A DNA stretch of 64,000 nucleotides from NCBI GenBank assembly GCA_041663445.1, contig JBAYMR010000003.1:21123-85122 (forward strand), written 5' to 3'. This DNA comes from Candidatus Micrarchaeia archaeon (GTDB taxonomy: Archaea; Micrarchaeota; Micrarchaeia; Anstonellales; Anstonellaceae). A program made the translations under genes and the position numbers. The notes under the pieces were generated by a model. It saw only the letters and a program-made list of their open reading frames with translations. It did no database searches and was not told where the DNA came from. Shown here piece by piece: positions 50,050 to 64,000 of this stretch (position 1 is the stretch's first letter; every line of letters starts with the position of its first letter).

Positions 50050-52302
50050 TCACTTCGGGCAGTCGCTGTCGCATGCCGAGACTGCCGCGCGGTAGCGGCT
50101 CATCACCTGCGCGCCGTAGCTGTTCTTGGGCGAAAGCGAGCGCAGGTAGGCGATATAGTTCTGGTAACACTGCGTGTTCTGGCTGCCGTCACTTCCTGCG
50201 CAGCACTCGCCATTGGCATCGCGCTGCTTCACAAATTCGTTAAGCGTGGCTGGCTTGAGGCCGAAATAGCGGTTGGAGGCAAGATAATACTCAGCCCAGC
50301 CTTTTTCCTCCGGCTTCATGCCGCCTGTGCACTTTGAAAGCTGCGCCCAGTTGCTGTTCACCCAATTCTCGGTTGAACCGGAACCTCCGCGCAGGACGTC
50401 CGCGAACTTGTTCACGCCGCAGCACGCGCTCTGGCTGGCGTCAAACGGGTTGTAGTTTTCCCCGCCGCAGTTGGCAACTGGCGCAGGGACGCCGCCGCTC
50501 ACCTGCCCGTATGGATTGTCTATCGTGTATGCCTTGCCCGGGTATTCTATGCACTGCGCGAGCCCGTACGCGCACGGCTTCTGCTTCTTGCCGTTCTGCG
50601 GGTTTATGCCTGTGCATTTGTCTTTCTGGCACTTGGGGTCGTCCGCCATGCCTGCAAGCTCGCATATCTGCGCCATCGTGTACTTCTCCGGGTTGCATGC
50701 CGAATAATCATCATCCACGCACGTTGAGACTGCATACGGGTCAAACCCGCTTTCCTGCTCGAACTCCGCGCGCATGTATGTCGTGCTTATGTCCGCATCG
50801 TCCGCGCGCTCGTCTATTATTGGATAAGGCTCGCAATGGTTCCCGTCAAATCCGCCGGCAGTGCCGCTGTAATAAACGTATGGCATGGATGTTTCTGCAG
50901 GGCAGGCCTCCCCGCAGCCGAGCTTGGCTATTTTTGCCTCCGGCACCACCTCATCGCTGGAAAAGCCCTGCCCGCTGTTTATCATGGTTGCGGCATGGAG
51001 GCTTGGCTGGTCGTTCGTCATCACTTCGCACGATGAGCCCTGGCCGTTCCTGGAGAATATGAGTGGATTACGGTATTCGCTGTTCGCCCCCACTTCCTGG
51101 CACATGTCGGCCCACGCATTCATCTGGGGGTGCTTCTGCGACCCATTGGCGCTCAGCATCCCGAAGCTGCAGCCCTGCACGCCGTTGCACGGAAGCGAGC
51201 CGCTGCCATCCACGAACTCGTAAAAGCCCATGCCAAGCACTCCCGAGCTTGCAAGCCCGCCCGTGCGCGTGAGCAATTCCTGGTAAAAGCCGCTTACCAT
51301 AGTGCCGTCCCACTGGCAGGAGCCGTCGCTATTGTTGCCCTCGCTTGCGCCAGCGTAAAGCCATATCGTGGGCTTGTTGTAGTTTTTGAGTATGTAGCGC
51401 GAGAAGTTCAGGTTCTCGTAAATTATCCTGTCGGCATCGCAGTGGGGGTAGTCGTTTGCGCGGAAGCCGAAGCCTGCTGCATCTATGCTGTCAAGCATCG
51501 TGGTGTCTATCCCGTCCGGCGGCACGCCAATCACCTTGTAAAGCGCATTGTAGTCGTTTGGCTTCACTGCCAGCACGGTCATGCATTTTGTGCAGAAATG
51601 GCGGATGTTGTAAAGCTGCTGCTTCACATTGCTTATTGCATTGTCGTCCGAGCTGTTCAGCCATACTTCTGTTGTGACAAACACGGGCCCGATGTCCGCA
51701 GCCTGGAATGCGCTCGCAATTTCCTGGGTTCTTGAAGGGTCAATTGCCTTGCCCTCGGTATAATATATGTAAAGCGGCAGCGTGCTCCGCTGGAGCCAGC
51801 AGGCAGCGCGGGAGACCTGCGGCACGCGCGGCGGTGAATTTTTTGTGCCCTTCATCCACTTGGTGGCAAGCTGCAGCGTGTAGTTGCAGTAAAGGTTGGC
51901 GTGTCCGGTGGAGACGAAAGACTGCCCGGCTCCCAGCCCGAACACGCGCATCTGCGTGCTGTTGTCGCTTTCCACTATTTCCTCGTAATCCGTTTCATTG
52001 CACTTGCTGATGCTGCAGTTCCCGCCCTGGAGGTTGCTGTCATAGTAGCCGACCAGCCAGCCGAGCCCCAGGAAGCCATACGATGTCTTGTTGCTGCATG
52101 CCATGCAGTAGCATGGCTTGTTGCCAGGAATCCCCTGGCAGATAAGCTCGCTGTCGTTGAGGTATTTTGGCACGGTCATGTCCCCTCCGCTCACCGTCTC
52201 GATTGGGTTCCCATTCTGGTCCTGCAGCACGCAGCCTGGCACTGTGAGCAGAAGCACGGCAAAAAGCGCCAACAGCGCCGGAGGTTTCCATTTAATAGAC
52301 AT
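50050..52302 (-). CDS. Cys-rich lipoprotein with a glycoside-hydrolase-like barrel and a C-terminal lytic transglycosylase (SLT/lysozyme-like) domain
   Basis: Lipobox LLLTVPG|C; MRAEFEQESGFDPYAVS, AYGLAQ and NPFDASQSACCG motifs. The start overlaps the stop of the upstream giant gene. Confidence 0.7.
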   Translation of the reverse strand: MSIKWKPPALLALFAVLLLTVPGCVLQDQNGNPIETVSGGDMTVPKYLNDSELICQGIPGNKPCYCMACSNKTSYGFLGLGWLVGYYDSNLQGGNCSISKCNETDYEEIVESDNSTQMRVFGLGAGQSFVSTGHANLYCNYTLQLATKWMKGTKNSPPRVPQVSRAACWLQRSTLPLYIYYTEGKAIDPSRTQEIASAFQAADIGPVFVTTEVWLNSSDDNAISNVKQQLYNIRHFCTKCMTVLAVKPNDYNALYKVIGVPPDGIDTTMLDSIDAAGFGFRANDYPHCDADRIIYENLNFSRYILKNYNKPTIWLYAGASEGNNSDGSCQWDGTMVSGFYQELLTRTGGLASSGVLGMGFYEFVDGSGSLPCNGVQGCSFGMLSANGSQKHPQMNAWADMCQEVGANSEYRNPLIFSRNGQGSSCEVMTNDQPSLHAATMINSGQGFSSDEVVPEAKIAKLGCGEACPAETSMPYVYYSGTAGGFDGNHCEPYPIIDERADDADISTTYMRAEFEQESGFDPYAVSTCVDDDYSACNPEKYTMAQICELAGMADDPKCQKDKCTGINPQNGKKQKPCAYGLAQCIEYPGKAYTIDNPYGQVSGGVPAPVANCGGENYNPFDASQSACCGVNKFADVLRGGSGSTENWVNSNWAQLSKCTGGMKPEEKGWAEYYLASNRYFGLKPATLNEFVKQRDANGECCAGSDGSQNTQCYQNYIAYLRSLSPKNSYGAQVMSRYRAAVSACDSDCPK

Positions 52303-55300
52303 CATAATCACTGCCATAATTTCCTGTGATGAGCGCCAGTTCCATGTACTCTTCCCTGGTGTTATCGGATATTCTCCTGCTGCCAGGGCTGCTGATGTAG
52401 TGTGCCCTCTTCATCTTCCTTATCACCCACCTGGCCGGGGCGAACTGGCTCAGGTAATCGCTTGTTCTTTCTCCCATCTGCACCAGGTTCTGTGCTTTAA
52501 ACCTGCTCACCCAGCGTGACTGGTAAAGGTCCCGCGGATATTCGTATTCTTCCGGCTTCTGCCTATGTTCCTTGGGCGCGTGATTAATCAGCCGGTTTAC
52601 TTTCCTTGTAAGCAAAGGCTCTTCAAACGTAGATGACAGGCTGGACATCGCTGGGTTAAGATAAGCAAGATTCTTATAAGCTCCCCTGATAATCGGCACC
52701 CACACTGGCGACATGAACGCAAGCGTATAGTTGTTGATTGACGAATAGTTTACCTCTCTGCTCTGCATCTTCATCAGGTGCATCATCACCGGCACGTCGG
52801 TTTTGTAGTTCTCTGCGACAGAGTCCATCCTGGTCTGGAAACGGTCCGTGAAGTATATTTCCTTTGTATCCTGGTCATATCTCGCCTCCCAGTAGCTCTT
52901 CAGCGTGCCAAGGTGGCTCTTCTCATCTGCATTGTCCACAGTGCGCGCAACCTGGGGGAACGAGTGCCATTCGCCGCTGCCAATGGGTGCGGATTGCAGC
53001 ATTCCCGGGATGGTAGGGGTGAATACGTTGGTGTGGAACATGATATACATGTCCAGGAACCTGTTCCTCGAGCCGTCCTCCGCAATGTCCCTTCCCGAAA
53101 GCACATCCCTGATATATCTGCCTCTCTTATCATTAAAGTTTGCCGCGTTGTCCAATGTTTTGAACAGCGCGTCCGTGTAAGTTTTCTCCTTCGCAATATC
53201 CATCTCTATCGCTGCTTCGCTCAGCCTGCGGTTTGCCTCTGCCAAACCTATTTTCTCGCCATTCACATCCACGTCTAAGCCGCCGTTTTTTTCAATGAAC
53301 TTGTCAAACTCGCGCACCTGGTCAATGTACCTCTGCTGCAAGGACAACTGATATGGGGTGTCCCAGTACTGGTGGCTTTCCATGCCCATCTTGTCCAGCT
53401 GGTTTCTCACCCAGCTTCGGCCCTCCTCTCCCCTGTCATAGCCACCTGTCGCCTGGTGGGCGGCAATCATGTGCCCAACGCCTGTGAATGTCACGGTGTC
53501 CTGCAGCCTGGCCTTGAAAAAGTCGGTGTATGTCTTTGCCTGGAACAGGGCAATGAACGGCGCTTTCATGTATGATGTTGGACCCCTATGTTCATGGTCT
53601 GGCGCGTACATCATGTCGCTTTTCACCGGGGCGGGGTAGCCTGTGGTGTAGCGTGCCATGAAGCTGATTTTGTCGTTCCACCACTTGTGCACGGCGTATG
53701 CAATGTTAAGCTGGAGGTGCATGTGCTGTTCCCAAAGTGAGTTGGTCGCCCAGAAGCGCGCCCGCTCGTAGACATTCTGCCCTGTGTGATAGCCAACGTA
53801 CCACGCCCAGTCCATGCCAGGCGCGCCTGCGCCTATTGCGGTGCGCGGGTCACGCATGACGCTTGATTCGGTTATCTCGTAAAATACATCCTTCTGCCCC
53901 TGCACCTGATGGCTGTCCAAAAGCCTGCTTACAATCCCCATGTTCCACATTGTCCTTGCCGGGTTATACGTCGGGCCGCTGCCGTGGCTTCCGTTCCAGG
54001 TGATAAGCATCCTGTTCAAGTCGCCATAGTCGTGCTTTGCCTCCCTGTATTCCCTCCTCATCTCATTTTTCTTGTCCTGTATTTCGCTGCGCAGCGCATC
54101 GTACTTCGAATCCGCAATTTCCCCCCTTGCATGCAGCTTGTCCAGCGCACGAAGCTCGAGGCGCGCATTGTAATAGTTGTTCTCAGCCTCGCCAATGTCT
54201 TTCACCACTGTCGAGGCAATCCGCCCGCGCCACTCATGCCACCATGCCTGCTTGCCTTCCCAATACGTAACATCCTTCCCTTTCGCAAGATTTTCCATTT
54301 CATTCGTCAGCCTGTTCCGGTCCGAGGCATCCAGCTGCGTCTTGAAATCATCCGATTTTATCTTTTTTGCCGCATACATCTCGTCAATCCTGTCGAGCGC
54401 CGCGTTGCCAGTTTTCCACCTTTTGTTCCCGTCCATCATTTCTTCGCTTATGGCGCCCCCAAACCTGTCCAATGCCTGGCGGAGCTGGTACTGTGCCGAA
54501 TACCATTCCTGCATCTTGTCCAGCCTATCGGCAAATGCACCATATGATGACTCTGCCGAGCGCATGGCATATCCGTAATACTTTGACCGTATCCATTCCC
54601 TGGTCCTATCAAGCCCGGTGTATTCGCCAAAGGCATCGCTCTTTTTTCTGCCATACTCGTTGAAGTCGCGGGTCGAGACCACCCGCAACCCTGCATCTTC
54701 TGGCTTGCTGCCTTCATTGATTTTTACCATGCTCTCGATTATTTCCTTGCGGAACGCCACCCTTTTCTCAGCACCCATTGCCATCGCTTGCGCTTCTTTT
54801 TCCTTGAACGGGTCGGTGTATATCCACCTGATTTTTTCATTCCCATCCTTATCCTTATAGGTATCCTTCTTAAGTATCACAAATCCGATTTCCCTGCTGG
54901 TATAAAACGAACCCATGGTGCGCGCAACAAGCGCGGCATAGTTGGGCACATCCCCTTTGCGCACAATGCCGTCCCTTTGCTCGATTGGCAGGAGCTTTCC
55001 ATCCTTGCCCTTCTGCCACGTCATGTACTTCTGGTCAAACTCCACCATGGGCACGGACTTCCTGTCCACGCTCAGCAAAAGCCCCACGCCGTTTTTCATG
55101 TCGCCCCAGCGGTAGCCTCGATCGATGATGGCATCATATGCGTCAACATCGAACACGGCAAGCCCTTTCTCCCCCGTCTTCAGTATGCCCCTCTTTTTCA
55201 TGTCATCTGCGAATTTCTTGTCGTAGAAAATGCTTTCCCCGTGCACCAGGCCCTGGTAGAACTTTTCATATTTTTTCAGGTCGTCGTTATAGGCCCTGCG

Positions 55301-58300
55301 TGTGGCGTCCAGCAGCCCGAGCACGTTGTCGCCCCTGCTGCTGCCTTCCCATTTATGCGATACCGTGAAGCCGAAAATTGCTTCCCACCCCCTATTTTCG
55401 AAAATCAGCCCTTCCACATCATGGCTCTTGTACTCTGCATAGCCCATTTCGCGCCTATACGCCGGCTTTTCGAATCTGAGGTAGTCCATGTTGGTTTTGA
55501 ACGTGCCTGAGGTTCTCACATCGTATGCTGCCGCATTCCCGCTTGCCATGTACCTGGCAGCGTCTTTGCCTCCGTGCAGTATCTCGGTGGCTGCATAGTT
55601 CCTTGCCACCCAATCTGTGTTGTATTTCTTCATATCTGTAAGGATGGACTTCAGCATCGTTTCCAGCGGGTCCTTGCTCATGTTGGCGGGCGTTGTCGCA
55701 TCCTTCCTGCCTGCCATTATCTCCCTTACCTTTTGCTGGAAGAGGTATTCCTCCCTCGCACTGTCTGGATTCCCTATCACCTTGCCGAAGAACTGGTCCA
55801 GCGCGTCAATGTTGGTGAATACTGGGATGGGCTTCCCTTTCTCGTCTAGCTTGAGGTTGCCGTTGCCGTCTTTCTTGTAAAGGAACTCGTCTTCGATGCC
55901 ATGCTTTTTCATCGCATATATCATGAATAGCTCAAGCGGGTTCTTTCCGAACCAGCAGCCTTCGCGCACCATCTGCCCAAAGTCAATATCAGGCAGCCTT
56001 CCATCCTTGCCCCTATTCTCCAGCTGCCTGTCCAGTTTTTTTATGAGCGCATCCATTATGCCCGTCGTTATACTCTCGTACTTCGCATAAATTTCCTGCG
56101 CATTCTTCCCGTCAAGGAGATATTTTTTCATCTCCTTTCTCCTGTCATCATACGCTTTGAACGTTACGTTTTCCGCTTCTTTCAGCGACTTGAGGGAATC
56201 GAGCGTCTTGCGCGCCGCGTTAAGCTCCTTTTGGGAAAGCGTGCCACCCTTGGCCCCTGATGCCAGCTTGTCCAGCGCCGCCCGGTCCGCATCCGAAAGC
56301 GCCACCCCGGCTTTCTCCATCTGCTGTTTCATCTTTTCCACTGCGCCTGCAACCCCCTTGCCGCTGGTGGCTGCGCTGCGGAGGTCAATCAGGCTCGCGT
56401 AAAGCTCGCGGTGCTTGAACAGTTCGTTTACTAAGTCATCCCCGTACTTTTCCCTAAGCCTCTTTTCCTTGCCTACTTTGTCCCTGCTGTCCATCTCTAT
56501 TTCTACGTCTTTTTTCTCTATTATCTTGTAAATGTTTTTCGCATCTTCCTCATTTGAAAGGTAGATAAGCATTTTTTCCTTCAGTCCTTTCTCCACTTCG
56601 CCGAACGTCTTGATGGCAGTGCCGAGTGTTGTCAGGTATTCCATCGTTTCCTTGTCGCTCTTGGACGCTTTTTTGGCCAGTTCCAAAAGCTCTTCCAGCT
56701 TTTTCTGCTGGTTCATGCCCCTGTCATTTATTATCCTGGCCACTTCCTGCTCATAGCCTATTGACTCGCGAAGCTGCGTTGCAAATGCCTTTGCAACATC
56801 CTTGTCGGTTTTGGAAAGGCCCTTGAGGCCGTCAATGGTTTTCACAATCTGCTTCAGCTGCCTGTCCAGGTCTGCCGTTTCAAGGTTCTTCCCGTTCTTG
56901 TCCATCCCATTCCCGCTGTAAAGTTTATCCAGCGCAGCGGCAAGCTCGTGGCTCTCCTTGCTATTGACCTTTTCCCTCAGTTGTTTCTTTATTTTTTCAA
57001 AAATATATTCCATGCCCTTCCGCCTGGCAAGATCATCCAGCTCCCTCTTATCCTGCTCTTTCTTTGGCAGTATTTTCCTAAGCTCGGCTGCAAGCTTGCG
57101 TGAAGCGTTGCTGCGCGTTGGTATGCTGGAAAGCACGTTGAAGCCAAGCGCCGCGAACATCCTGTTGAGCTGGTCGGTTTCGTGCTGCGCCTTGCTATTT
57201 ACCGTATTGTAAAGTGTCACCAGCCTTTTCGTGAGCAGGTCATGCTTCGTCTCGAAAGCCGCCCAGCTTTTGCCTGTGATTTTTTCATAATATTTGCCGA
57301 ACTTCGTCTTCTTGCCGTCCTTGACGTGGAGGCTCTCGAACATCTTGTAAATGCGTTTGGGCTTGCCATTCTTGTCGTGTCCTGCCCTATATGCCATCTG
57401 GCCCAGCATCTCGTTTCTCACTCCCTTGATTGCCGCGCGCGAGCTTCGGAACTGCGCACCAACATCCAGCACCTTCCCGGGTATTGTCAGCACATGCCCC
57501 ACGAACGGGACGTAGCCAAGTATGTTGACGATTTTGGAAGATTCAAAGGCATTCACGGCTTTCGTTGTCTTGTCAAGACCCTTGCTCACCTTTTTCGAAA
57601 GAATGTTCGTTCCGCCCCTGCTCCTTGCCGCCTCCATCATTTTCATTGCCGCGTGCGTATCCAGATAAATCGTCAAAAGTCCGCTTGACAGCTTGAGGGA
57701 GCGCTCATAATCATGCATCTTCCACTTGAAGCTAATATTGCTCTCATCCTTCCTCTTCACCGGCGCGTATTTCCCCATCAGGTTGTTCCAGTCCCTCAGC
57801 AGCATCGCCCTGTCTGCATCGGAAAGCGGCTCCTTGCCTCCCATCATCTTTTCCGCTTTGTCATACAGGTTCTGCATCTCCTTCTTTGCCTTTTCCGCGT
57901 CCATGCCGTTTTTCCTGGCAAAGCGCGCAATTTCCTTGACTGAATCGCGGCGTGATTTCACCCCGATCATCATGTACCTGCGCTTGACTTGGCGCAGCAT
58001 CTGCGGGGACTGCCCCATCCTGACCCTGAAGGTCTTGGCCTTCGGCAGCTTGGGCGTGGTGATATCAAAAAGCGAGAGCGGGTCCCTGCCCGCATAGTAC
58101 ATTGCAGCTATGAGCAATCCTGCGATGAGCATGGCCGGGAAGCAGAACGGGAGCCTGTTCCGGTCGCTTATCGCCTTGTATATCGCTGGCGCAAAAGCCG
58201 AAAGCCCTGCATTGCTGACTGGGCACACCACTGCAGTCTGGGAAGCTTCCGGGAATTTTGCCGAGCCGCGGACCATCGAGTCCGCCCTTATCGTCACATA

Positions 58301-58774
58301 TCCGCAGCTCTTGTAATCATCAATGGGGTGCACCGTGCCGTTTGCGTCCTTGTAGTGCGTGATTTTGCACGAGGCCATTCCCTGCTCGCTCGTGTTGATT
58401 GGGTCGCACGCCTTTTCGCCTGCCCCATCGACTATTTCCATTCCTTCGAACGTGAAGTGCAATGCCGAGCAGTTGAGCGGATCCACTTCGGCCGTGAAAT
58501 TGTCAATCGAGTAATTGCCCATCTGGTGCAAGTCGTCGAGGTTTCCTGCCTCGGTCACTTTTTTTGTCACTTCCGCTATCGCGGTTTCATTGTACTGGCT
58601 GAAGTAAGTGATATTGAGGAAGGTCACCCTCACGGTGACATTGGTCTCGTTCACCGATGTCGAGATGAACGTGCTGAAGGCCGCGTCGGAGTAGGGCGCC
58701 TGGGCAAGCGCAAGATGCGCCTGCAGCGCCAGCAGTAAGAGAAAAAGCCCTGATGCTGGTACGGCTGACCTCAT
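52292..58774 (-). CDS. Giant (2160 aa) membrane-anchored hypothetical protein
   Basis: Signal peptide, Cys-containing ~180-aa domain, TM helix FPAMLIAGLLIAAMYY, then ~1900 aa of charged, helical sequence. Confidence 0.85.
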   Translation of the reverse strand: MRSAVPASGLFLLLLALQAHLALAQAPYSDAAFSTFISTSVNETNVTVRVTFLNITYFSQYNETAIAEVTKKVTEAGNLDDLHQMGNYSIDNFTAEVDPLNCSALHFTFEGMEIVDGAGEKACDPINTSEQGMASCKITHYKDANGTVHPIDDYKSCGYVTIRADSMVRGSAKFPEASQTAVVCPVSNAGLSAFAPAIYKAISDRNRLPFCFPAMLIAGLLIAAMYYAGRDPLSLFDITTPKLPKAKTFRVRMGQSPQMLRQVKRRYMMIGVKSRRDSVKEIARFARKNGMDAEKAKKEMQNLYDKAEKMMGGKEPLSDADRAMLLRDWNNLMGKYAPVKRKDESNISFKWKMHDYERSLKLSSGLLTIYLDTHAAMKMMEAARSRGGTNILSKKVSKGLDKTTKAVNAFESSKIVNILGYVPFVGHVLTIPGKVLDVGAQFRSSRAAIKGVRNEMLGQMAYRAGHDKNGKPKRIYKMFESLHVKDGKKTKFGKYYEKITGKSWAAFETKHDLLTKRLVTLYNTVNSKAQHETDQLNRMFAALGFNVLSSIPTRSNASRKLAAELRKILPKKEQDKRELDDLARRKGMEYIFEKIKKQLREKVNSKESHELAAALDKLYSGNGMDKNGKNLETADLDRQLKQIVKTIDGLKGLSKTDKDVAKAFATQLRESIGYEQEVARIINDRGMNQQKKLEELLELAKKASKSDKETMEYLTTLGTAIKTFGEVEKGLKEKMLIYLSNEEDAKNIYKIIEKKDVEIEMDSRDKVGKEKRLREKYGDDLVNELFKHRELYASLIDLRSAATSGKGVAGAVEKMKQQMEKAGVALSDADRAALDKLASGAKGGTLSQKELNAARKTLDSLKSLKEAENVTFKAYDDRRKEMKKYLLDGKNAQEIYAKYESITTGIMDALIKKLDRQLENRGKDGRLPDIDFGQMVREGCWFGKNPLELFMIYAMKKHGIEDEFLYKKDGNGNLKLDEKGKPIPVFTNIDALDQFFGKVIGNPDSAREEYLFQQKVREIMAGRKDATTPANMSKDPLETMLKSILTDMKKYNTDWVARNYAATEILHGGKDAARYMASGNAAAYDVRTSGTFKTNMDYLRFEKPAYRREMGYAEYKSHDVEGLIFENRGWEAIFGFTVSHKWEGSSRGDNVLGLLDATRRAYNDDLKKYEKFYQGLVHGESIFYDKKFADDMKKRGILKTGEKGLAVFDVDAYDAIIDRGYRWGDMKNGVGLLLSVDRKSVPMVEFDQKYMTWQKGKDGKLLPIEQRDGIVRKGDVPNYAALVARTMGSFYTSREIGFVILKKDTYKDKDGNEKIRWIYTDPFKEKEAQAMAMGAEKRVAFRKEIIESMVKINEGSKPEDAGLRVVSTRDFNEYGRKKSDAFGEYTGLDRTREWIRSKYYGYAMRSAESSYGAFADRLDKMQEWYSAQYQLRQALDRFGGAISEEMMDGNKRWKTGNAALDRIDEMYAAKKIKSDDFKTQLDASDRNRLTNEMENLAKGKDVTYWEGKQAWWHEWRGRIASTVVKDIGEAENNYYNARLELRALDKLHARGEIADSKYDALRSEIQDKKNEMRREYREAKHDYGDLNRMLITWNGSHGSGPTYNPARTMWNMGIVSRLLDSHQVQGQKDVFYEITESSVMRDPRTAIGAGAPGMDWAWYVGYHTGQNVYERARFWATNSLWEQHMHLQLNIAYAVHKWWNDKISFMARYTTGYPAPVKSDMMYAPDHEHRGPTSYMKAPFIALFQAKTYTDFFKARLQDTVTFTGVGHMIAAHQATGGYDRGEEGRSWVRNQLDKMGMESHQYWDTPYQLSLQQRYIDQVREFDKFIEKNGGLDVDVNGEKIGLAEANRRLSEAAIEMDIAKEKTYTDALFKTLDNAANFNDKRGRYIRDVLSGRDIAEDGSRNRFLDMYIMFHTNVFTPTIPGMLQSAPIGSGEWHSFPQVARTVDNADEKSHLGTLKSYWEARYDQDTKEIYFTDRFQTRMDSVAENYKTDVPVMMHLMKMQSREVNYSSINNYTLAFMSPVWVPIIRGAYKNLAYLNPAMSSLSSTFEEPLLTRKVNRLINHAPKEHRQKPEEYEYPRDLYQSRWVSRFKAQNLVQMGERTSDYLSQFAPARWVIRKMKRAHYISSPGSRRISDNTREEYMELALITGNYGSDYDVY

Positions 58775-58854
58775 GGTGTCTCCCAGATTGTTTTCGCCCT
58801 CTCATTCTTATAAATATGCTTCCCGAAATAGGCGAAAGGGCAGGTGCTGGCGCG

Positions 58855-60288
58855 ATGTTTGGATACCTTCTGACAACCCCCGCGGAACTGCTTGCGAACA
58901 GCAACGTATTCATGGCTTTCGCATTTGCAGTCTCCATCATCTCGCTCTCTTACATGGCGGGCGAGTTCATGTCCATGGCAAGCCTGAAAGGGTTTGCCAA
59001 GGCGGAGCTTTACGAGCTGGGCGTGAGTGCAGTCATACTCGTTCTCCTTCTTGTCATGATCACTCCCGACGGGCCGTTCGACATGGTTTCGCGCGGATTC
59101 ATGCCATCCGTCAGCCCCACCGGCTCCGGGCCCGAGCTTTGCGAGCAATGGAAGGAGATACACAAGCCCGTGGTGCTTGACCCGCTGACCGGCACATGGT
59201 TCGCGCAGAATGGCAACATTGCATTCGGCTCCGCCAACTATTTCCTGGGCTGCAAGCCCAAAATCAGCAACATCATCCACGCTTTTTCAGGCTGGACCGA
59301 CCCGTCATCGGGCGTGCCCGCAGATATTTTTCCCGGCGTGATTTCGTCCCGCCTGATGAAAGGCTACACCTCGCTCATGCTTACCCAGATGTTCACGGGT
59401 TTCCTGTCCGGGCTTTCCACCAACATCCCGCTCATCTTCATGGGAATTCCCCTTGAAATAGGGTTCATGCCGTTCGTCGGCATCGGGCCAGTCAATCAGG
59501 CGCACACAGGGATTGTCGACCTGCTGGGCACGGTGTTTGCTGCTTTCACTGCGCAGAACATGCTGCTGACTTTCATCGAGGAAGCCGCGATTCCCGTTTT
59601 CCTCCCGTTCGGCATGATACTGCGCGCCTTCCCTTTCAGCAGGAAAACCGGCTCCACCATAATCGCCGTGGTGGTGGCCGCGTATTTCGTCTATCCCCTG
59701 TCCATCCTGTTAAACCAGCAGATATGGCTCATGGTTGTCTCCCCGCCATGCCCCGCCGGCTTCCAATGCCTCGCAGTGGGTGCGACATGCCAAAACGACG
59801 AGGATTGCGCCTCGTTCGACTGCCGCGCGGAAAGGTGCGTGGTGCCGCTCACGGACTTCACGGAATACCATTCAATCTATTCGCTCTGCAAAGGCACATA
59901 CACCCCGTCCAATTCGGAGAGGACGCTGTCCATCATTGGGATGGAACAGGACAAGCGCATGATGGAGATGTATTTCTCGGGCACGCCTACCAGCGTGGAA
60001 CCCACAAAAACCGAGGGGCGGCTGCACGACGGGTTTTTATCTCTTATTGAAAGGCACGGCATATCCGCATTGAAGTTCGGAACATCGTTCCTTTTTGCGC
60101 CAGTCGGGGCTGCCGCACAGACCGCGTTCAGCGAAATCGAGGTGTTGGTGATGGATGCAGGGCAATACGCCCTGCTCGCACTAATATTCACGGTGTTAAC
60201 AGTGGTCATATCCCTTACCATGCTCAAGGACATCGCCATATTGATAGGGGGCGAGCCGCGCGTGTTCGGGCTTTCAAAACTGGTGTAA
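58855..60288 (+). CDS. Polytopic membrane protein, CedA/VirB6-like paralog 1
   Basis: AKAELYELGVSAVIL; LPFGMILRAFPFSRKTGSTIIA...YFVYP; Cys-rich loop; C-terminal IGGEPRVFGLSKLV. Confidence 0.65.
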   Translation: MFGYLLTTPAELLANSNVFMAFAFAVSIISLSYMAGEFMSMASLKGFAKAELYELGVSAVILVLLLVMITPDGPFDMVSRGFMPSVSPTGSGPELCEQWKEIHKPVVLDPLTGTWFAQNGNIAFGSANYFLGCKPKISNIIHAFSGWTDPSSGVPADIFPGVISSRLMKGYTSLMLTQMFTGFLSGLSTNIPLIFMGIPLEIGFMPFVGIGPVNQAHTGIVDLLGTVFAAFTAQNMLLTFIEEAAIPVFLPFGMILRAFPFSRKTGSTIIAVVVAAYFVYPLSILLNQQIWLMVVSPPCPAGFQCLAVGATCQNDEDCASFDCRAERCVVPLTDFTEYHSIYSLCKGTYTPSNSERTLSIIGMEQDKRMMEMYFSGTPTSVEPTKTEGRLHDGFLSLIERHGISALKFGTSFLFAPVGAAAQTAFSEIEVLVMDAGQYALLALIFTVLTVVISLTMLKDIAILIGGEPRVFGLSKLV

Positions 60289-60305
60289 CGCAGTGCGCAG
60301 CATGA

Positions 60306-61274
60306 TTGAAAAATGAAAATGGTGTCTTGATGTACCTGTTGTCAGCAGCATACTCGTCCGATTCCATGCTTAGCCTGGTGGGCACCATGATCGGGACCGG
60401 CGCCGCCACCATGGTGTTCATGCTTGCCCTTTTCTACATGGCAGCCCAGTTTTTCAAGAAGCCCGAGTATGAGGCGTTTGTCTCGATAGAAATCTACCAG
60501 CTCGCAGTTTCGCTCATGCTGTTCACCACGATATTCGGCGCCGCCTATTTTGCAAACGAGTTGTCTGCCTCGTTTTCATCCGCCATTTCCGGCACCAGCG
60601 GGGACGCATTCGACGTGGGGAGCAACTACCTCAACTACGTGGCAAACGAGGTTGCATTGCAGGCCATAAAGAAGCTCCAGGGGCTGATGCTCCTCTCGCA
60701 GTGGATGGGCTCCATCACCATGCGCTTTGGCGCCGGGGTGTGGGGCGTGGTCGTGCCCGCATTCCCCTCTTTCATAGTGATAGAGAAGGTGATGGAGTTC
60801 CTGCTCATGCTGGTTTCACCGTTCACTGCCAGCCTGATTGTGCAGCAGGTGGGGTTGCAGATCATCAAGGCGACCATGCTGCCATTTGTCCTTCCGATGG
60901 GCGTGGTGCTGCGCATCTTCCCGCCCACCCGCGACGCAGGCTCGTTCATCATCTCGACCGCGTTGGCATTCCAGGTAATATTTCCCTTCAGTTACGTGAT
61001 GCATGCCCAGATAGTGAAAGGCATACTCATCCCGAACGCATATGCCAATGAAAAGAACGTCGCCGACTACATGACGAACACGCTCGGAGCCGGCAGGCTG
61101 ACTGCATTTGTGAGCGAGAACGGGCTTTTTGACATAACCAGCATGCTATTCAGCCCCATCCTGTCGCTTTCCTTCCTGCTCCTGCAGGCGGTTTTCCTTC
61201 CCGCGCTCAGCATGGTGCTCACAGTGGCATTTATCAAGAGCTTCAATAAATTCATAAGCCAGAAATTCAGCTGA
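60306..61274 (+). CDS. Polytopic membrane protein, CedA/VirB6-like paralog 2
   Basis: VSIEIYQLAVSLML; LPMGVVLRIFPPTRDAGSFIIS...VIFP. Start uncertain. Confidence 0.65.
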   Translation: MKNENGVLMYLLSAAYSSDSMLSLVGTMIGTGAATMVFMLALFYMAAQFFKKPEYEAFVSIEIYQLAVSLMLFTTIFGAAYFANELSASFSSAISGTSGDAFDVGSNYLNYVANEVALQAIKKLQGLMLLSQWMGSITMRFGAGVWGVVVPAFPSFIVIEKVMEFLLMLVSPFTASLIVQQVGLQIIKATMLPFVLPMGVVLRIFPPTRDAGSFIISTALAFQVIFPFSYVMHAQIVKGILIPNAYANEKNVADYMTNTLGAGRLTAFVSENGLFDITSMLFSPILSLSFLLLQAVFLPALSMVLTVAFIKSFNKFISQKFS

Positions 61275-61280
61275 TATTGT

Positions 61281-62570
61281 ATGGCAAGCAAAAACCTATT
61301 GATTGTGGCGGGCATCCTGCTTTTGCTTTTCGCCAGCTTCGGCTGCACCAGCCCGCCTTCGGGCGCTGCCACGCCCAAAACCAGCTCAATGGGCTGGAAC
61401 CTGCTCGTAGGCGTGGCAGTGATGATAGTGGTGCTGCTGCTTGCGCTTGGCTACATGGTCGCGGCTTTCTTGGGTGATGACCGGCTCAAGGCATGGGTGA
61501 GCCGCGAGCTTGGGCAGGTCTTCTTCTCAGTGGTGATAATCGTCGTTGTGGTCGCGCTTGCAGGCTCTCTTGACCAGTGGCTGAATCTGCTCTCCCTTGC
61601 AGGTGGCTCCACTTGGCAGAATTACGTGAGCACCGGGGTGTGCTGCCCGGCAGGAGGCGCATGCAGTTTCCCAACAAGCAGCCAGCCGCGCGGAAGGGCG
61701 TGCCACATTGAAATCGCCTCGGACTACCTACAGGTCCTCTATGAAAGCACAAGGCAAAGCGCGAGCGCCGACCTGAGCAACTACGGGATGTTCGCCTTTC
61801 TATCCCATCTATCGGTAAGTAAGTCTCTTGTGCTCAAATACCTGGCTATAAACTCCACCATGCCATTCGCAGGCCTGGAGCTTGCTGCCGAATTCTTCTC
61901 GAACCTGTTCGACCTTTCCATAAAGACCATGATGCTTTTGCGTGCGCAGCAGATTTTCCTGGACTTCATGTGGTATCCGCTGTTTCCTGTGATGCTTTCC
62001 ATGGGCTTGGTGCTGCGCATATTCTATTTCACGCGCAAGCTAGGGGGACTGATGATTGCGCTGGGCCTTTCCTTCTACGTGGTTTTCCCCATGTTCTACG
62101 TTCTTGCCAACGGCATCATGTGGGGCTTCATGGACAATCCCGCCTCGCTTTCGGTTGGCATGACATATAATTCCGACCAGACAACCGGCACGCCCCTGCC
62201 ACTGTATGGCCAGAACCAGCTTGCGCCGCAGCAGCGCGCCAAGAACGTGTTTAACTCTGGCACATCGGTGGATATTGACATCTGCAACGCAAGCACGGTG
62301 CAGGAGTTCAATGCTGCTGCCAGCGAGTTTGACAGGTTCGGCAGTTCCTGGAACACGTTTGAAGGCGGCAAATGGTATCAGCAGTTCTGGACGTTCATAT
62401 CTGTCCGTGCATTTTCCTTAGACGGGCCCATCGCCAACCTCGCATTCCTCATGGTTTTCACCATGATTATCCCGTTCCTTTCGCTCATGACGTCTCTTGC
62501 CGCATTCAAGGTGCTCTCGCCCATGATAGGCGGAGATGTGGAAATCTCACTGCTCTCGAGGCTGATATGA
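61281..62570 (+). CDS. Polytopic membrane protein with lipobox-like N-terminus, CedA/VirB6-like paralog 3
   Basis: ASFG|C; VSRELGQVFFSVVII; MGLVLRIFYFTRKLGGLMIA...YVVFP; C-terminal IGGDVEISLLSRLI. Confidence 0.65.
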   Translation: MASKNLLIVAGILLLLFASFGCTSPPSGAATPKTSSMGWNLLVGVAVMIVVLLLALGYMVAAFLGDDRLKAWVSRELGQVFFSVVIIVVVVALAGSLDQWLNLLSLAGGSTWQNYVSTGVCCPAGGACSFPTSSQPRGRACHIEIASDYLQVLYESTRQSASADLSNYGMFAFLSHLSVSKSLVLKYLAINSTMPFAGLELAAEFFSNLFDLSIKTMMLLRAQQIFLDFMWYPLFPVMLSMGLVLRIFYFTRKLGGLMIALGLSFYVVFPMFYVLANGIMWGFMDNPASLSVGMTYNSDQTTGTPLPLYGQNQLAPQQRAKNVFNSGTSVDIDICNASTVQEFNAAASEFDRFGSSWNTFEGGKWYQQFWTFISVRAFSLDGPIANLAFLMVFTMIIPFLSLMTSLAAFKVLSPMIGGDVEISLLSRLI

Positions 62571-63914
62571 TTGGCAAAAATTAGCAGAATCTCAATCGTG
62601 CTTGCCGCATTGCTCACGCTCCTGCTGCTTTCAGGCAGGCTTTACCCAGGCAACCTGATAGACGGGCTTTTCAGCCCGGCAAGCTCGCTCACGACGTGTG
62701 CGCCCAACCCGGGATTTGCAAGCGTGCTTGAATGGGCTGGGCTTTCCCTCGTTGCAATCATGATCGGAGTGGTATGGGCAACGATAGGGCAGGTGCTGGG
62801 CGGCACGTTTGGCGGGCAAAAATACAACGAGTTCATCAAGGGCATGCTATGGGGTGCAGTGGAAACCGCGGCTCTCTTGGGACTATTCCTCTCGCTCTTT
62901 TCCGTACTTTGGCCATTCGGCATGGAAAATCTGGACAAGGCGCGCGCATATGCTGTGCTCACCAAAAATACGGTCCAATTCGATTTTGCCATATTGCTTT
63001 CAACCAACGTGTTCATAGGTTTTCTCGCCAATTTCAGTCCCCCTCTCAAGATGCCTGGCAAGATATTCGTCACATTCGGGGTCCAGTTCGCCCCCATGCT
63101 CAAGCCTCTAATGGACATACTCGGCACTGCCATGCAGCTCATCACCACTGCGGTGGTGATGTGGAACGCACAGGAATTCCTGCTCTGCTTCATCAAGTCC
63201 AACATGCTTACCATACTCCTTCCCGCCGGCTTTTTCCTGCGCGGCTTTGGCGTCAAGGCAGGCGGCAACGCGCTTCTCGGCATTGCGATTTCATTGTTTT
63301 TTGTCTATCCTTACATGGTAAACATGACTGGCGAGGTGGTAGCAAATCACCTCGTGCTCGAGCGCGCGTATGAAGACTCGCCCCATCTATGGGGCGACTG
63401 CCACAACCGGCCAATCTGTTGCCTGATTGTCGGGAGTGCCCGCCCGAGCAGTATGAACGAGCCATTCATCAAAAACGGCGTAAACTGGGCGACGGATTTG
63501 GACTATCGCATCTCGCCGGAAAAGGTCAATCAGGGTATGTTTGACATGAAGTTCGACAACCAGGTGGCGGGTGGGGGCAATGCAAACAGCTGGTGTATGT
63601 ACAATACGGCCGTGAGCAATGCTTACAAGGCATTCCTCAGCCCCATCATGGCCACTGGCTTTGTCGGCGGTGCTGGCGCAGCAGGAACGCTTGTAGTGCT
63701 GAAATACCTCAACCTCGGTCTGCTTGCAGTAAGTGCAGTAATCCCAATCTCCATGTTCACCTTCTATATAATGAGCGACATCATGTACTTTGTCTTCGTG
63801 GTCACCATGATAGTGCCGCTTTTCATAATCTTCGTCACGCTCACATTGGCAAAGGAAATCGCCAAGGTGCTTGGCACCGAGATAGACCTAAGCTCGCTTG
63901 AGAAGCTGATATGA
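62571..63914 (+). CDS. Polytopic membrane protein, CedA/VirB6-like paralog 4
   Basis: LPAGFFLRGFGVKAGGNALLGIA...FVYP; Cys-containing loop; C-terminal LGTEIDLSSLEKLI. Confidence 0.62.
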   Translation: MAKISRISIVLAALLTLLLLSGRLYPGNLIDGLFSPASSLTTCAPNPGFASVLEWAGLSLVAIMIGVVWATIGQVLGGTFGGQKYNEFIKGMLWGAVETAALLGLFLSLFSVLWPFGMENLDKARAYAVLTKNTVQFDFAILLSTNVFIGFLANFSPPLKMPGKIFVTFGVQFAPMLKPLMDILGTAMQLITTAVVMWNAQEFLLCFIKSNMLTILLPAGFFLRGFGVKAGGNALLGIAISLFFVYPYMVNMTGEVVANHLVLERAYEDSPHLWGDCHNRPICCLIVGSARPSSMNEPFIKNGVNWATDLDYRISPEKVNQGMFDMKFDNQVAGGGNANSWCMYNTAVSNAYKAFLSPIMATGFVGGAGAAGTLVVLKYLNLGLLAVSAVIPISMFTFYIMSDIMYFVFVVTMIVPLFIIFVTLTLAKEIAKVLGTEIDLSSLEKLI

Positions 63915-63927
63915 AAGGGTAGATTTC

Positions 63928-64000
63928 ATGACTGATATGGCTGCAATGGCATGCGACCCGGTGATGCGGGGCCAGCTAGGGGGAATGCTGCTTGGAGGGG
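63928..64000 (+). CDS. 5' start of a further gene of the cluster (runs off the window)
   Basis: ATG 13 nt after the previous stop; open frame MTDMAAMACDPVMRGQLGGMLLGG... to the window end. Confidence 0.4.
   Translation, partial: MTDMAAMACDPVMRGQLGGMLLGG

Follow-up and report, generated by a model that had tools for sequence, protein, structure and literature searches.

We analyzed a window of 64,000 nucleotides (C3:21123-85122) from the genome of a Candidatus Micrarchaeia archaeon (1.2 Mb, 23 contigs, GC content ~56%); contig C3 extends 10.7 kb beyond the end of the window. From position 50050 onward, the window holds two divergent gene blocks. On the minus strand are a giant membrane protein and a Cys-rich protein with an SLT-like domain, and on the plus strand is an array of six paralogous membrane proteins, which we call a hexad (P1 to P6; Table 1). 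A reading of the DNA without database searches (the sequence-only reading) had proposed that these genes encode a chromosomal apparatus of a DPANN archaeon that is related to the type IV secretion system (T4SS) or to the Ced system. This proposal is supported in part, by the linkage of the hexad to a putative motor operon in related genomes, by fold matches to VirB4 and VirB6, and by synteny, but there is no sequence or profile evidence for VirB6, and no VirB4 is encoded nearby in this genome. The idea that the organism is a probable DPANN symbiont holds: the orthologs of the studied genes carry the names Candidatus Micrarchaeia or Micrarchaeota.

The hexad and its divergent partners

The plus block was thought to contain at least four paralogs, running past the edge of the window. 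These proteins are indeed paralogous and polytopic, and the array continues, but it has six members. They are 19-25% identical to each other and share a core motif (Q..L.F...LP.G..LR.FP.TR..GG). Five of the six end with LGxExDxSxLxKLI, a short cytoplasmic tail that may be a common docking peptide for a partner protein; P2 and the solo member of the family (see below) lack the tail. The record form of P2 has 314 amino acids and begins at 60330, which we judge to be the probable start, and the orthologs of P2 across Micrarchaeota are 37-79% identical. Searches of Pfam and NCBIfam with all six in-window proteins found nothing meaningful (for Pfam, even at E ≤ 1), and profiles of the paralog family had no match among PDB sequences. 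We rejected an identity as ABC permeases or other transporters, as no such family was matched by 40 members.

An exhaustive profile search of 1.84 billion proteins found 3016 representative clusters of this family at E ≤ 1e-3, and every named member that we looked up was from Micrarchaeota. Among 61 genomes of Micrarchaeota, 57 encode members of the family; in all but two of these, 5-19 members are among the matches listed per genome. This genome encodes 13 members: the hexad in the window (hexad-1), a second hexad (hexad-2), and a solo member. In a phylogenetic tree of 68 members (299 core columns), seven clean orthogroups are resolved, which correspond to positions 1-6 and to the solo type. 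Every gene of hexad-2 sits in the clade of its own position, so the hexad was duplicated as a unit. Also, the order from P1 to P6 is the same in the 13 loci from relatives that hold all six genes (three other loci, L026, L027, and L032, show five). The seven orthogroups and the fixed order indicate that the six positions are not interchangeable, as expected if each contributes its own subunit to a heteromeric complex.

The proteins of hexad-2 have 562, 326, 1373, 352, 399, and 457 amino acids. Hexad-2 is followed by a Cys-rich lipoprotein of 1681 amino acids (98 cysteines and 30 sequons for N-glycosylation), and then by a giant-like single-pass protein that ends at the contig edge. CARDB adhesion domains are found on the 1373-amino-acid member and on the giant-like partner.

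In the minus block, the stop codon of the giant gene had been described as overlapping the start of the SLT gene. It does, by 26 nt if the longest open reading frame (ORF, 755 amino acids) is used and by 14 nt with the record form (751 amino acids, starting at 52305). The SLT-like protein contains 36 cysteines and 10 N-glycosylation sequons, and its orthologs, which are 34-68% identical, are all from Micrarchaeota. Calling it an SLT-domain lipoprotein was partly right: it has a lipobox-like signal, and 12 of 22 orthologs match the SLT family in Pfam (PF01464; best 4.3e-7), but the copy in the window has no match to Pfam SLT at E ≤ 1. Among the 22 orthologs, the putative catalytic glutamate (E522) and the adjacent S523 are almost invariant. 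Because the ortholog at locus L025 lacks the SLT part, the conserved core of the protein is the N-terminal/central domain, which possibly has a glycosidase-like fold. A profile from the alignment of these proteins had no match in the PDB, and hhalign found no significant match to the lytic transglycosylases of R388 and R751. One local match, which was not significant, pairs the E-S motif with TQES of the R388 enzyme.

At the N-terminus of the giant protein is a signal peptide that looks cleavable, followed by a sequon-rich ectodomain of ~190 amino acids, a single transmembrane (TM) helix, and ~1900 cytoplasmic residues. The cytoplasmic body comprises a basic/coiled-coil middle and conserved C-terminal blocks (ITESSxMRDPRTA and EDGSRNRF). 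We found no Walker A motif or P-loop in the giant protein and no known domain from Pfam or NCBIfam, and a profile of eight orthologs had no match in the PDB. Orthologs of 1412-2143 amino acids adjoin the hexad at loci L014, L016, and L020-L025. The best-conserved element is the TM helix with the juxtamembrane motif that follows the consensus YYxGRxPLSLFDITTPxLP, and this segment recurs in the giant-like partner of hexad-2 (BLAST, 3.5e-6; hidden Markov model or HMM, 1.1e-10). We rejected the suggestion that the ~850-amino-acid protein of the motor operon (see below) shares this motif, as an HMM search did not support it.

The two blocks are separated by an intergenic region that had been put at ~80 bp. 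It is 80 bp long, with TTATAAATA at 58808-58816. This is the only TATA-like box in the gap, ~34 nt from the ATG of the giant gene and ~39 nt from the ATG of P1, and may act as a promoter.

Synteny across the Micrarchaeota is very strong. In order-level relatives, the genes are collinear from AdoMet (S-adenosylmethionine) decarboxylase through the SLT-like gene, the giant gene, P1-P6, SecF, and SecD to DUF2085, although their proteins are only 30-50% identical. The hexads of more distant Micrarchaeota lie amid housekeeping genes, and the giant and SLT-like genes do not adjoin them. The cluster here is flanked by genes for ribosomal protein L15e, AdoMet decarboxylase, SecF/SecD, DUF2085, and an Asn-synthase-like protein, and its GC content is equal to that of the genome as a whole. 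Given the collinear synteny and the genome-like base composition, the cluster is part of the core chromosome and not a mobile element. In agreement with the sequence-only reading, which saw no genes of mobile elements, there is no integrase or relaxase near the cluster (positions 1-45000 of the window lie outside the annotated part).

Table 1. Coordinates of the hexads, their partners, the motor operon, and neighboring genes. Positions without a prefix are those of the window; those with a prefix are on contigs or loci.
Feature	Coordinates	Strand	Basis
755-aa (amino acid) Cys-rich secreted, lipobox-like protein with SLT-like C-terminal domain	50050-52317	-	ORF; orthologs
Glu522 codon (putative catalytic residue, in the E-S motif EFEQ-ES-GFDPYAVS)	50752-50754	-	Ortholog alignment
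Giant 2160-aa single-pass membrane protein	52292-58774	-	ORF, TM prediction
TM helix (residues 208-230) of the giant protein and juxtamembrane motif GRDPLSLFDITTPKLP	58043-58153	-	Ortholog alignment, HMM
Divergent intergenic region, 80 bp	58775-58854	.	Sequence reading
P1, 477 aa, polytopic, Cys-rich insert in second external loop	58855-60288	+	Position-1 orthogroup
P2, 322 aa, minimal family member	60306-61274	+	Position-2 orthogroup
P3, 429 aa, N-terminal lipobox-like signal	61281-62570	+	Position-3 orthogroup
P4, 447 aa, TTG start	62571-63914	+	Position-4 orthogroup
P5, 352 aa, first 24 codons in window	63928-64000, onward to C3:86108	+	ORF
P6, 336 aa, past window, after P5	P5 and P6 span C3:85050-87115 (L001:5051-7116)	+	ORF
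SecF/SecD	C3:87254-90178 (L001:7255-10179)		
Free-standing LAGLIDADG and HTH gene	C3:91706-92692 (L001:11707-12693)		
Hexad-2	C9:7683-18010		
Giant-like partner of hexad-2, with TM/juxtamembrane segment	C9:1-2600		BLAST, HMM
Solo family member	C5:59493-60497		
Motor operon	C1:143190-150057		
540-aa HerA/VirB4-type ATPase	C1:147577-149199		Pfam, PDB profile
~100-aa gene of the motor operon	C1:147160-147477		
Lone ATPase paralog	C2:8240-9850		
Lone second 2-TM paralog	C5:36079-36867		

The motor operon and fold comparisons

A genome without any VirB4-like ATPase would have counted against the sequence-only reading. However, a VirB4/HerA-type ATPase is encoded elsewhere in this genome, and in relatives it is encoded immediately 3' of the hexad. 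The protein has 540 amino acids and matches DUF87, AAA_10, and P-loop_TraG from Pfam, as well as structures of HerA and the C-terminal domain of VirB4 (4ag5; residues 61-337). It belongs to a motor operon that encodes a protein of 277 amino acids with two N-terminal TM helices (the 2-TM protein, upstream of the ATPase), the ATPase, and then proteins of 105, 260, and 898 amino acids. All 20 of the related genomes that we fetched have kept this operon, with genes for the 2-TM protein, the ATPase, sometimes a ~100-amino-acid protein, and proteins of ~250 and ~850 amino acids. The ~100-amino-acid gene was detected in 6 of the 20, and also in genome G006. In this genome, it is a stand-alone copy of the C-terminal region of the ATPase (residues 429-525, 33-39% identical).

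In G006, the motor genes begin directly after the sixth gene of the hexad, with two 2-TM proteins, then the ATPase, and then two further genes. Of 12 additional genomes, which represent two other families, 10 have the same gene order from the six-gene hexad through a pair of 2-TM proteins to the ATPase, tightly packed and on a single strand. At nine more loci, a family member of the solo type lies directly 5' of a paralogous 2-TM/ATPase operon. This physical linkage of hexad and motor in relatives is the strongest evidence that connects the two. It implies that there was one ancestral locus, which was pulled apart in the lineage of this genome.

The phyletic pattern of the motor is the same as that of the hexad. 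The 57 genomes with the hexad family all encode an ATPase ortholog (55-83% identical), and none of the four without the family does, one of these having a 24%-identical match only; this co-occurrence may be the effect of a single clade, as the four genomes come from only three families.

There are also paralogs of the motor. In other families of Micrarchaeota, loci L036-L045 (for example, L036:7142-14401) contain a second, smaller operon, with a solo-type family member, a 2-TM protein, an ATPase paralog of 370-460 amino acids, and proteins of ~212, ~240, and ~750 amino acids. In the one copy of the ~750-amino-acid protein that we scanned, there is a weak match to a Zot-like P-loop family (20.3 bits, at the cut-off). 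At L043:8485-11628 (G006:C2), the ATPase is lengthened to 1047 amino acids by an intein with a LAGLIDADG homing endonuclease (Intein_splicing and LAGLIDADG_3 in Pfam). The genome with the window also has a lone ATPase paralog (46% identical) and a lone second paralog of the 2-TM protein (Table 1). As for the ~250-amino-acid protein of the main operon, it has weak matches to winged-helix families, below the Pfam cut-offs.

Since the ATPase lacks the N-domain of VirB4, and since the preceding gene encodes a TM hairpin and a soluble domain, we predicted beforehand that the 2-TM protein would resemble VirB3 together with the VirB4 N-domain. The AlphaFold2 model of the 2-TM protein, built from 33 sequences, is confident, with a pLDDT of 86.5 and a pTM of 0.70. 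Its five best matches from Foldseek are all to TrwK, the VirB4 protein of R388 (probability 0.96-0.99, E = 5e-3 to 5e-2, up to 269 aligned columns), and the next matches have probabilities of at most 0.54. Because the Foldseek output did not report which region of TrwK was aligned, we infer, and do not read from the alignment, that the 2-TM protein corresponds to the N-domain.

For the hexad, we modeled P2 with AlphaFold2 from 49 sequences, with a confident result (pLDDT 84.7, pTM 0.77). The model consists of six very long helices. When it was compared to the PDB with Foldseek, the best matches by probability and TM-score were to TrwI, the VirB6 protein of R388 (chains 8rtd_L, 8rt9_F, and 7o3v_G, with probabilities of 0.94, 0.87, and 0.51). 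The alignments are near full length, with E = 0.16-0.66 and TM-scores of 0.31-0.42, and scores of 0.3-0.4 are borderline. The remaining natural proteins had TM-scores of 0.27 or less, and a designed helical bundle (6z0c) gave a partial alignment with TMt of 0.35-0.40 and a probability of at most 0.44. Hydropathy and the positive-inside rule suggest that the family has its N-terminus outside, five TM helices with a large external loop after the second, and its C-terminus inside. VirB6 has the same topology. Overall, a VirB6-like fold is plausible for the family, judging from the model. The sequence-only reading had taken the paralogs to be VirB6-like: TrwI/VirB6 is the only plausible fold match, though a weak one, and the comparisons of sequences and profiles were negative. 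Membership in the VirB6 family is thus not established.

Taken together, the models suggest that two proteins of one locus best match two subunits of the same solved machine (8RTD), and a third protein of the locus, the ATPase, matches the ATPase domain of VirB4.

Possible function, alternatives, and related systems

We think that these genes probably encode a chromosomal, vertically inherited, T4SS-derived envelope machine of Micrarchaeota, with host contact as its probable role. The machine would derive from, or be built like, the inner-membrane core of a T4SS. Its membrane part would be formed by the seven ancient 5-TM paralogs (P1-P6 and the solo type), as a hetero-oligomeric VirB6-like channel or platform. 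Its motor would be a split VirB4: one or two proteins with a TM hairpin and a VirB4-like fold, and then a separate P-loop ATPase of the HerA/VirB4 type, with three further conserved proteins (~100, ~250, and ~850 amino acids) encoded after the ATPase. Hexad and motor form one locus in most Micrarchaeota and have become separated here, with hexad-1 in the window and the motor on C1. Within the order-level group of this genome, the divergent partners of hexad-1 are instead the giant protein and the Cys-rich SLT-like enzyme. The giant protein might scaffold or dock the complex from the inside, via its juxtamembrane motif and its 1900-residue cytoplasmic body, while the secreted enzyme might play a VirB1-like role and cut glycans locally. 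Facing the partner cell would be the external loops, which are variable, Cys-rich, and glycosylated, and the CARDB domains of hexad-2. Together with the SLT domain, these features point outward to another cell, and host contact would be a natural function for an obligate symbiont. The genes present and their orthogroups, synteny, and phyletic distribution, as well as the fold matches, are observations; that the parts form one envelope-spanning complex, which would mediate contact-dependent transfer between symbiont and host, is our inference.

Many results weigh against this T4SS-derived machine. Within this genome, the hexads, the motor operon, and the solo member are spread over four contigs, and the 10 kb downstream contain no VirB4 or other ATPase. 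In sequence, the ATPase is no closer to VirB4 than to HerA, and HerA structures score above VirB4 as its matches; the N-domain of VirB4 (PF03135) is absent from the genome, and the co-occurrence of ATPase and hexad might be that of one clade. For the 2-TM protein, the aligned region of TrwK was not reported, and neither hhalign against TrwK and TrbE nor Pfam at E ≤ 10 gave a significant match. For the hexad family, TrbL/VirB6 (PF04610) has no match at E ≤ 1 in the genome or in the four in-window paralogs, 40 diverse members have no Pfam match in common at E ≤ 0.1, and the TM-scores are borderline. With hhalign, probabilities stayed below 1% when the family was compared with TrwI or TrbL as single sequences, and they were 0.2-0.4% for a TrwI profile of 30 sequences; but this profile is shallow, with all members at least 50% identical, because a word-based search gave only relatives that are at least 51% identical. 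Neither the model of P2 nor that of the 2-TM protein has a match in the PDB at E ≤ 1e-3. No pilin similar to VirB2 or CedA1, no VirB8, and no relaxase stood out in the loci that we read, with no dedicated test for them. A 919-amino-acid ATPase on C1, similar to TrwB_AAD_bind and FtsK, could be a coupling protein and has no link to the system. On the other side of the cluster, the giant protein is an orphan from which no activity can be inferred, the SLT domain is weak in the window's own protein and missing from the L025 ortholog, and both genes adjoin the hexad in this order-level group only.

A somewhat unlikely alternative, but one to be taken seriously, is that the hexad is a lineage-specific complex unrelated to T4SS, driven by a HerA/FtsK-type ATPase, whose likeness to VirB4 and VirB6 is convergent or generic. 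It could, for instance, assemble the envelope or S-layer, export glycoproteins alongside SecDF, or remodel membranes. This would account for the absence of any sequence or profile tie to a T4SS family, for Foldseek E-values that are all above 1e-3, and for HerA structures as the best matches of the ATPase. A housekeeping role would also suit the near-universal, multi-copy presence of the family and the position of the hexad amid housekeeping genes in several genomes. But two proteins of the locus independently pick out two subunits of one T4SS structure, and these are essentially their sole fold matches; besides the HerA structures, the matches of the ATPase include AAA_10, P-loop_TraG, and the C-terminal domain of VirB4. 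The presence of SecF/SecD directly 3' of hexad-1 (here and at L014 and L016) might seem to favor a role in export, but this adjacency is confined to the order-level group, in which unrelated flanking genes are just as collinear. The CARDB adhesion domains and the SLT domain point to another cell instead. On balance, we prefer the T4SS-derived machine.

If the machine is derived from a T4SS, it might specifically translocate DNA, as an importer or exporter similar to Ced and Ted, and not serve as a conduit for proteins, lipids, or metabolites. ATPases of the HerA/FtsK/VirB4 group are typically DNA pumps, and the winged-helix matches of the ~250-amino-acid protein would suit this function, but these are under the Pfam cut-offs, and we saw no homologs of relaxases, nucleases, or pilins in the loci examined. 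Ced and Ted are themselves domesticated, chromosomal derivatives of T4SS with VirB6-like and VirB4-like parts (PMC9905601), and extensive exchange of genes between an ARMAN archaeon and its host has been reported (PMC5498576). However, neither the heavy complement of adhesin-like and Cys-rich external domains nor the presence of two hexads is a feature of Ced or Ted, and we consider a dedicated DNA translocator to be quite improbable. That the cluster is part of an integrated conjugative or other mobile element is effectively refuted. T4SS-like parts are usually carried by such elements, and Micrarchaeota have been suggested to harbor conjugation-like elements (PMC5498576), but the gene order from AdoMet decarboxylase to DUF2085 is the same in genomes that are only ~45% identical, the family is in 57 of 61 genomes, and its tree mirrors position in the hexad, not transfer. 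Also, the GC content is that of the genome, the flanking genes are housekeeping genes, and no integrase or relaxase adjoins the cluster (att sites were not searched for).

A bolder form of the T4SS-derived machine is a hetero-hexameric VirB6-like pore, with one subunit per position, that is driven by the split VirB4 and forms the core of a bridge for the uptake of host macromolecules. We regard this as speculative and unlikely in so specific a form. If it were true, it would be the first conduit between a DPANN archaeon and its host to be identified in molecular terms, and it would represent an archaeal lineage of T4SS that branched off earlier than Ced/Ted and the plasmid systems now known.

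The closest comparison for the T4SS-derived machine is the inner-membrane complex of R388, which contains TrwM/VirB3, TrwK/VirB4, and TrwI/VirB6 (PDB 7O3V, 7O41, 8RT9, 8RTB, and 8RTD). The 5-TM protein best matches the fold of TrwI, and the membrane-anchored 2-TM protein, which is encoded directly 5' of the VirB4/HerA-type ATPase, best matches the fold of TrwK, but there is no similarity to R388 at the sequence level. As with VirB/D4 systems more broadly, the operons are tightly organized and a putative SLT-type enzyme is nearby (compare VirB1). In contrast to those systems, there are seven distinct paralogs (a fixed hexad and a solo type) instead of a VirB6 homopentamer, and VirB4 would be split into two genes, with a TM hairpin fused to its N-part. 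Furthermore, none of VirB2, B5, B8, B9, B10, B11, D4, or a relaxase was identified in the loci that we read. The Micrarchaeota system is archaeal, chromosomal, core, and vertically inherited, and it has extra partners, namely the 2160-amino-acid single-pass protein and the operon proteins of ~250 and ~850 amino acids.

Ced, from the Sulfolobales, and Ted, from the Thermoproteales, are DNA-import systems (Beltran et al. 2023, PMC9905601). As is proposed for the system studied here, they are archaeal, chromosomal, domesticated derivatives of T4SS with a VirB6-like protein and a VirB4/HerA-like ATPase, and they are recognizable only by comparing profiles or structures (PMC9905601). But they are from a different phylum, have a single CedA or TedA where Micrarchaeota have a hexad (as compared by published description, not by sequence), and have VirB2-like pilins (CedA1/TedC), of which none was found in the Micrarchaeota loci that we read. 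No giant protein or SLT partner has been described for them.

Arrays of VirB6-type genes are known from bacteria. The T4SS of Rickettsiales includes four VirB6 paralogs in Ehrlichia chaffeensis (Bao et al. 2009, cited in PMC12857230), and, as in Micrarchaeota, these are tandem arrays of divergent and often enlarged genes in host-dependent organisms with reduced genomes. The rickettsial proteins are bona fide members of PF04610 and are encoded next to canonical virB3 and virB4. The Micrarchaeota array is archaeal, has six members plus one with strict positional orthology, and does not belong to the Pfam family. In the Patescibacteria or candidate phyla radiation (CPR), one cultivated strain has been reported to require its T4SS for epibiotic growth (PMC12102498). 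CPR epibionts would resemble Micrarchaeota in that ultra-small episymbionts have kept a minimal set of VirB4-, VirB3-, and VirB6-type genes on the chromosome. But their T4SS proteins derive from monoderm conjugation systems and were found with HMM profiles for conjugation (PMC12102498), whereas the Micrarchaeota proteins are not detectable by such profiles and have a different architecture.

Other DPANN archaea encode large proteins that may be comparable to the giant protein and its neighbor. These include the nanohaloarchaeal SPEARE proteins, with a domain similar to VirB4/TraG (PMC10266531), and, in Pacearchaeota and Woesearchaeota, large proteins with SLT domains (PMC8204110). Like SPEARE and other DPANN giants, the giant protein here is very large and crosses the membrane once, by a TM helix between its ectodomain and its cytoplasmic part, and is of a kind proposed for host contact, but it has a small ectodomain, a cytoplasmic body of 1900 amino acids, and no ATPase domain. 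As in Pacearchaeota and Woesearchaeota, SLT domains occur although archaea have no murein; the SLT protein here differs in having 755 amino acids and a second conserved domain. Neither of these papers describes the hexad or the split VirB4.

It has long been asked by what physical means DPANN archaea acquire host molecules such as lipids and nucleotides. To our knowledge, no machinery for acquiring them has been identified so far for Micrarchaeota. In the full-text literature that can be searched, we found no description of the hexad family, of the split VirB4 operon, or of their linkage in Micrarchaeota, which is not proof of novelty. The Mia14 genome paper lists SecDF and pili but not the hexad or motor genes, and a 2025 review of T4SS covers only plasmid systems for archaea. 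This lineage-wide membrane machine is apparently undescribed. It offers a concrete, near-universal, and heavily duplicated set of genes, with 13 family members in a genome of ~1.2 Mb, two giant partners, and a conserved motor operon. Because the hexad lies directly beside the split VirB4 motor in related genomes, we consider the system to be a strong candidate for the device that connects these archaea to host cells, and the links to T4SS, at the level of folds and of genomes, make the question of acquisition testable by experiment in co-cultures of Micrarchaeota. The system would extend the chromosomal, domesticated derivatives of T4SS beyond Ced and Ted, and would parallel the T4SS that was recently shown to matter in CPR epibionts. 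It would also be an unusual evolutionary solution, with a VirB6-like hexad of fixed order that duplicates as a unit and a VirB4 in two genes.

Genes flanking hexad-1

The window has no matches to tRNAs (ARAGORN) or to Rfam families at their gathering thresholds. Beyond P6 are SecF and SecD (SecD_SecF_C in Pfam), DUF2085, a gene with LAGLIDADG and helix-turn-helix (HTH) domains, and an Asn-synthase-like gene. SecF/SecD also lie directly 3' of hexad-1 at L014 and L016, and they are not found 3' of the hexad where the ATPase operon follows it. A functional tie between the hexad and Sec export is possible; what speaks for it is the collinearity and nothing beyond that. The LAGLIDADG gene is free-standing and follows DUF2085 in this genome. 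In relatives, the gene after DUF2085 encodes fibrillarin, either directly (at L014) or across one short gene (at L016).

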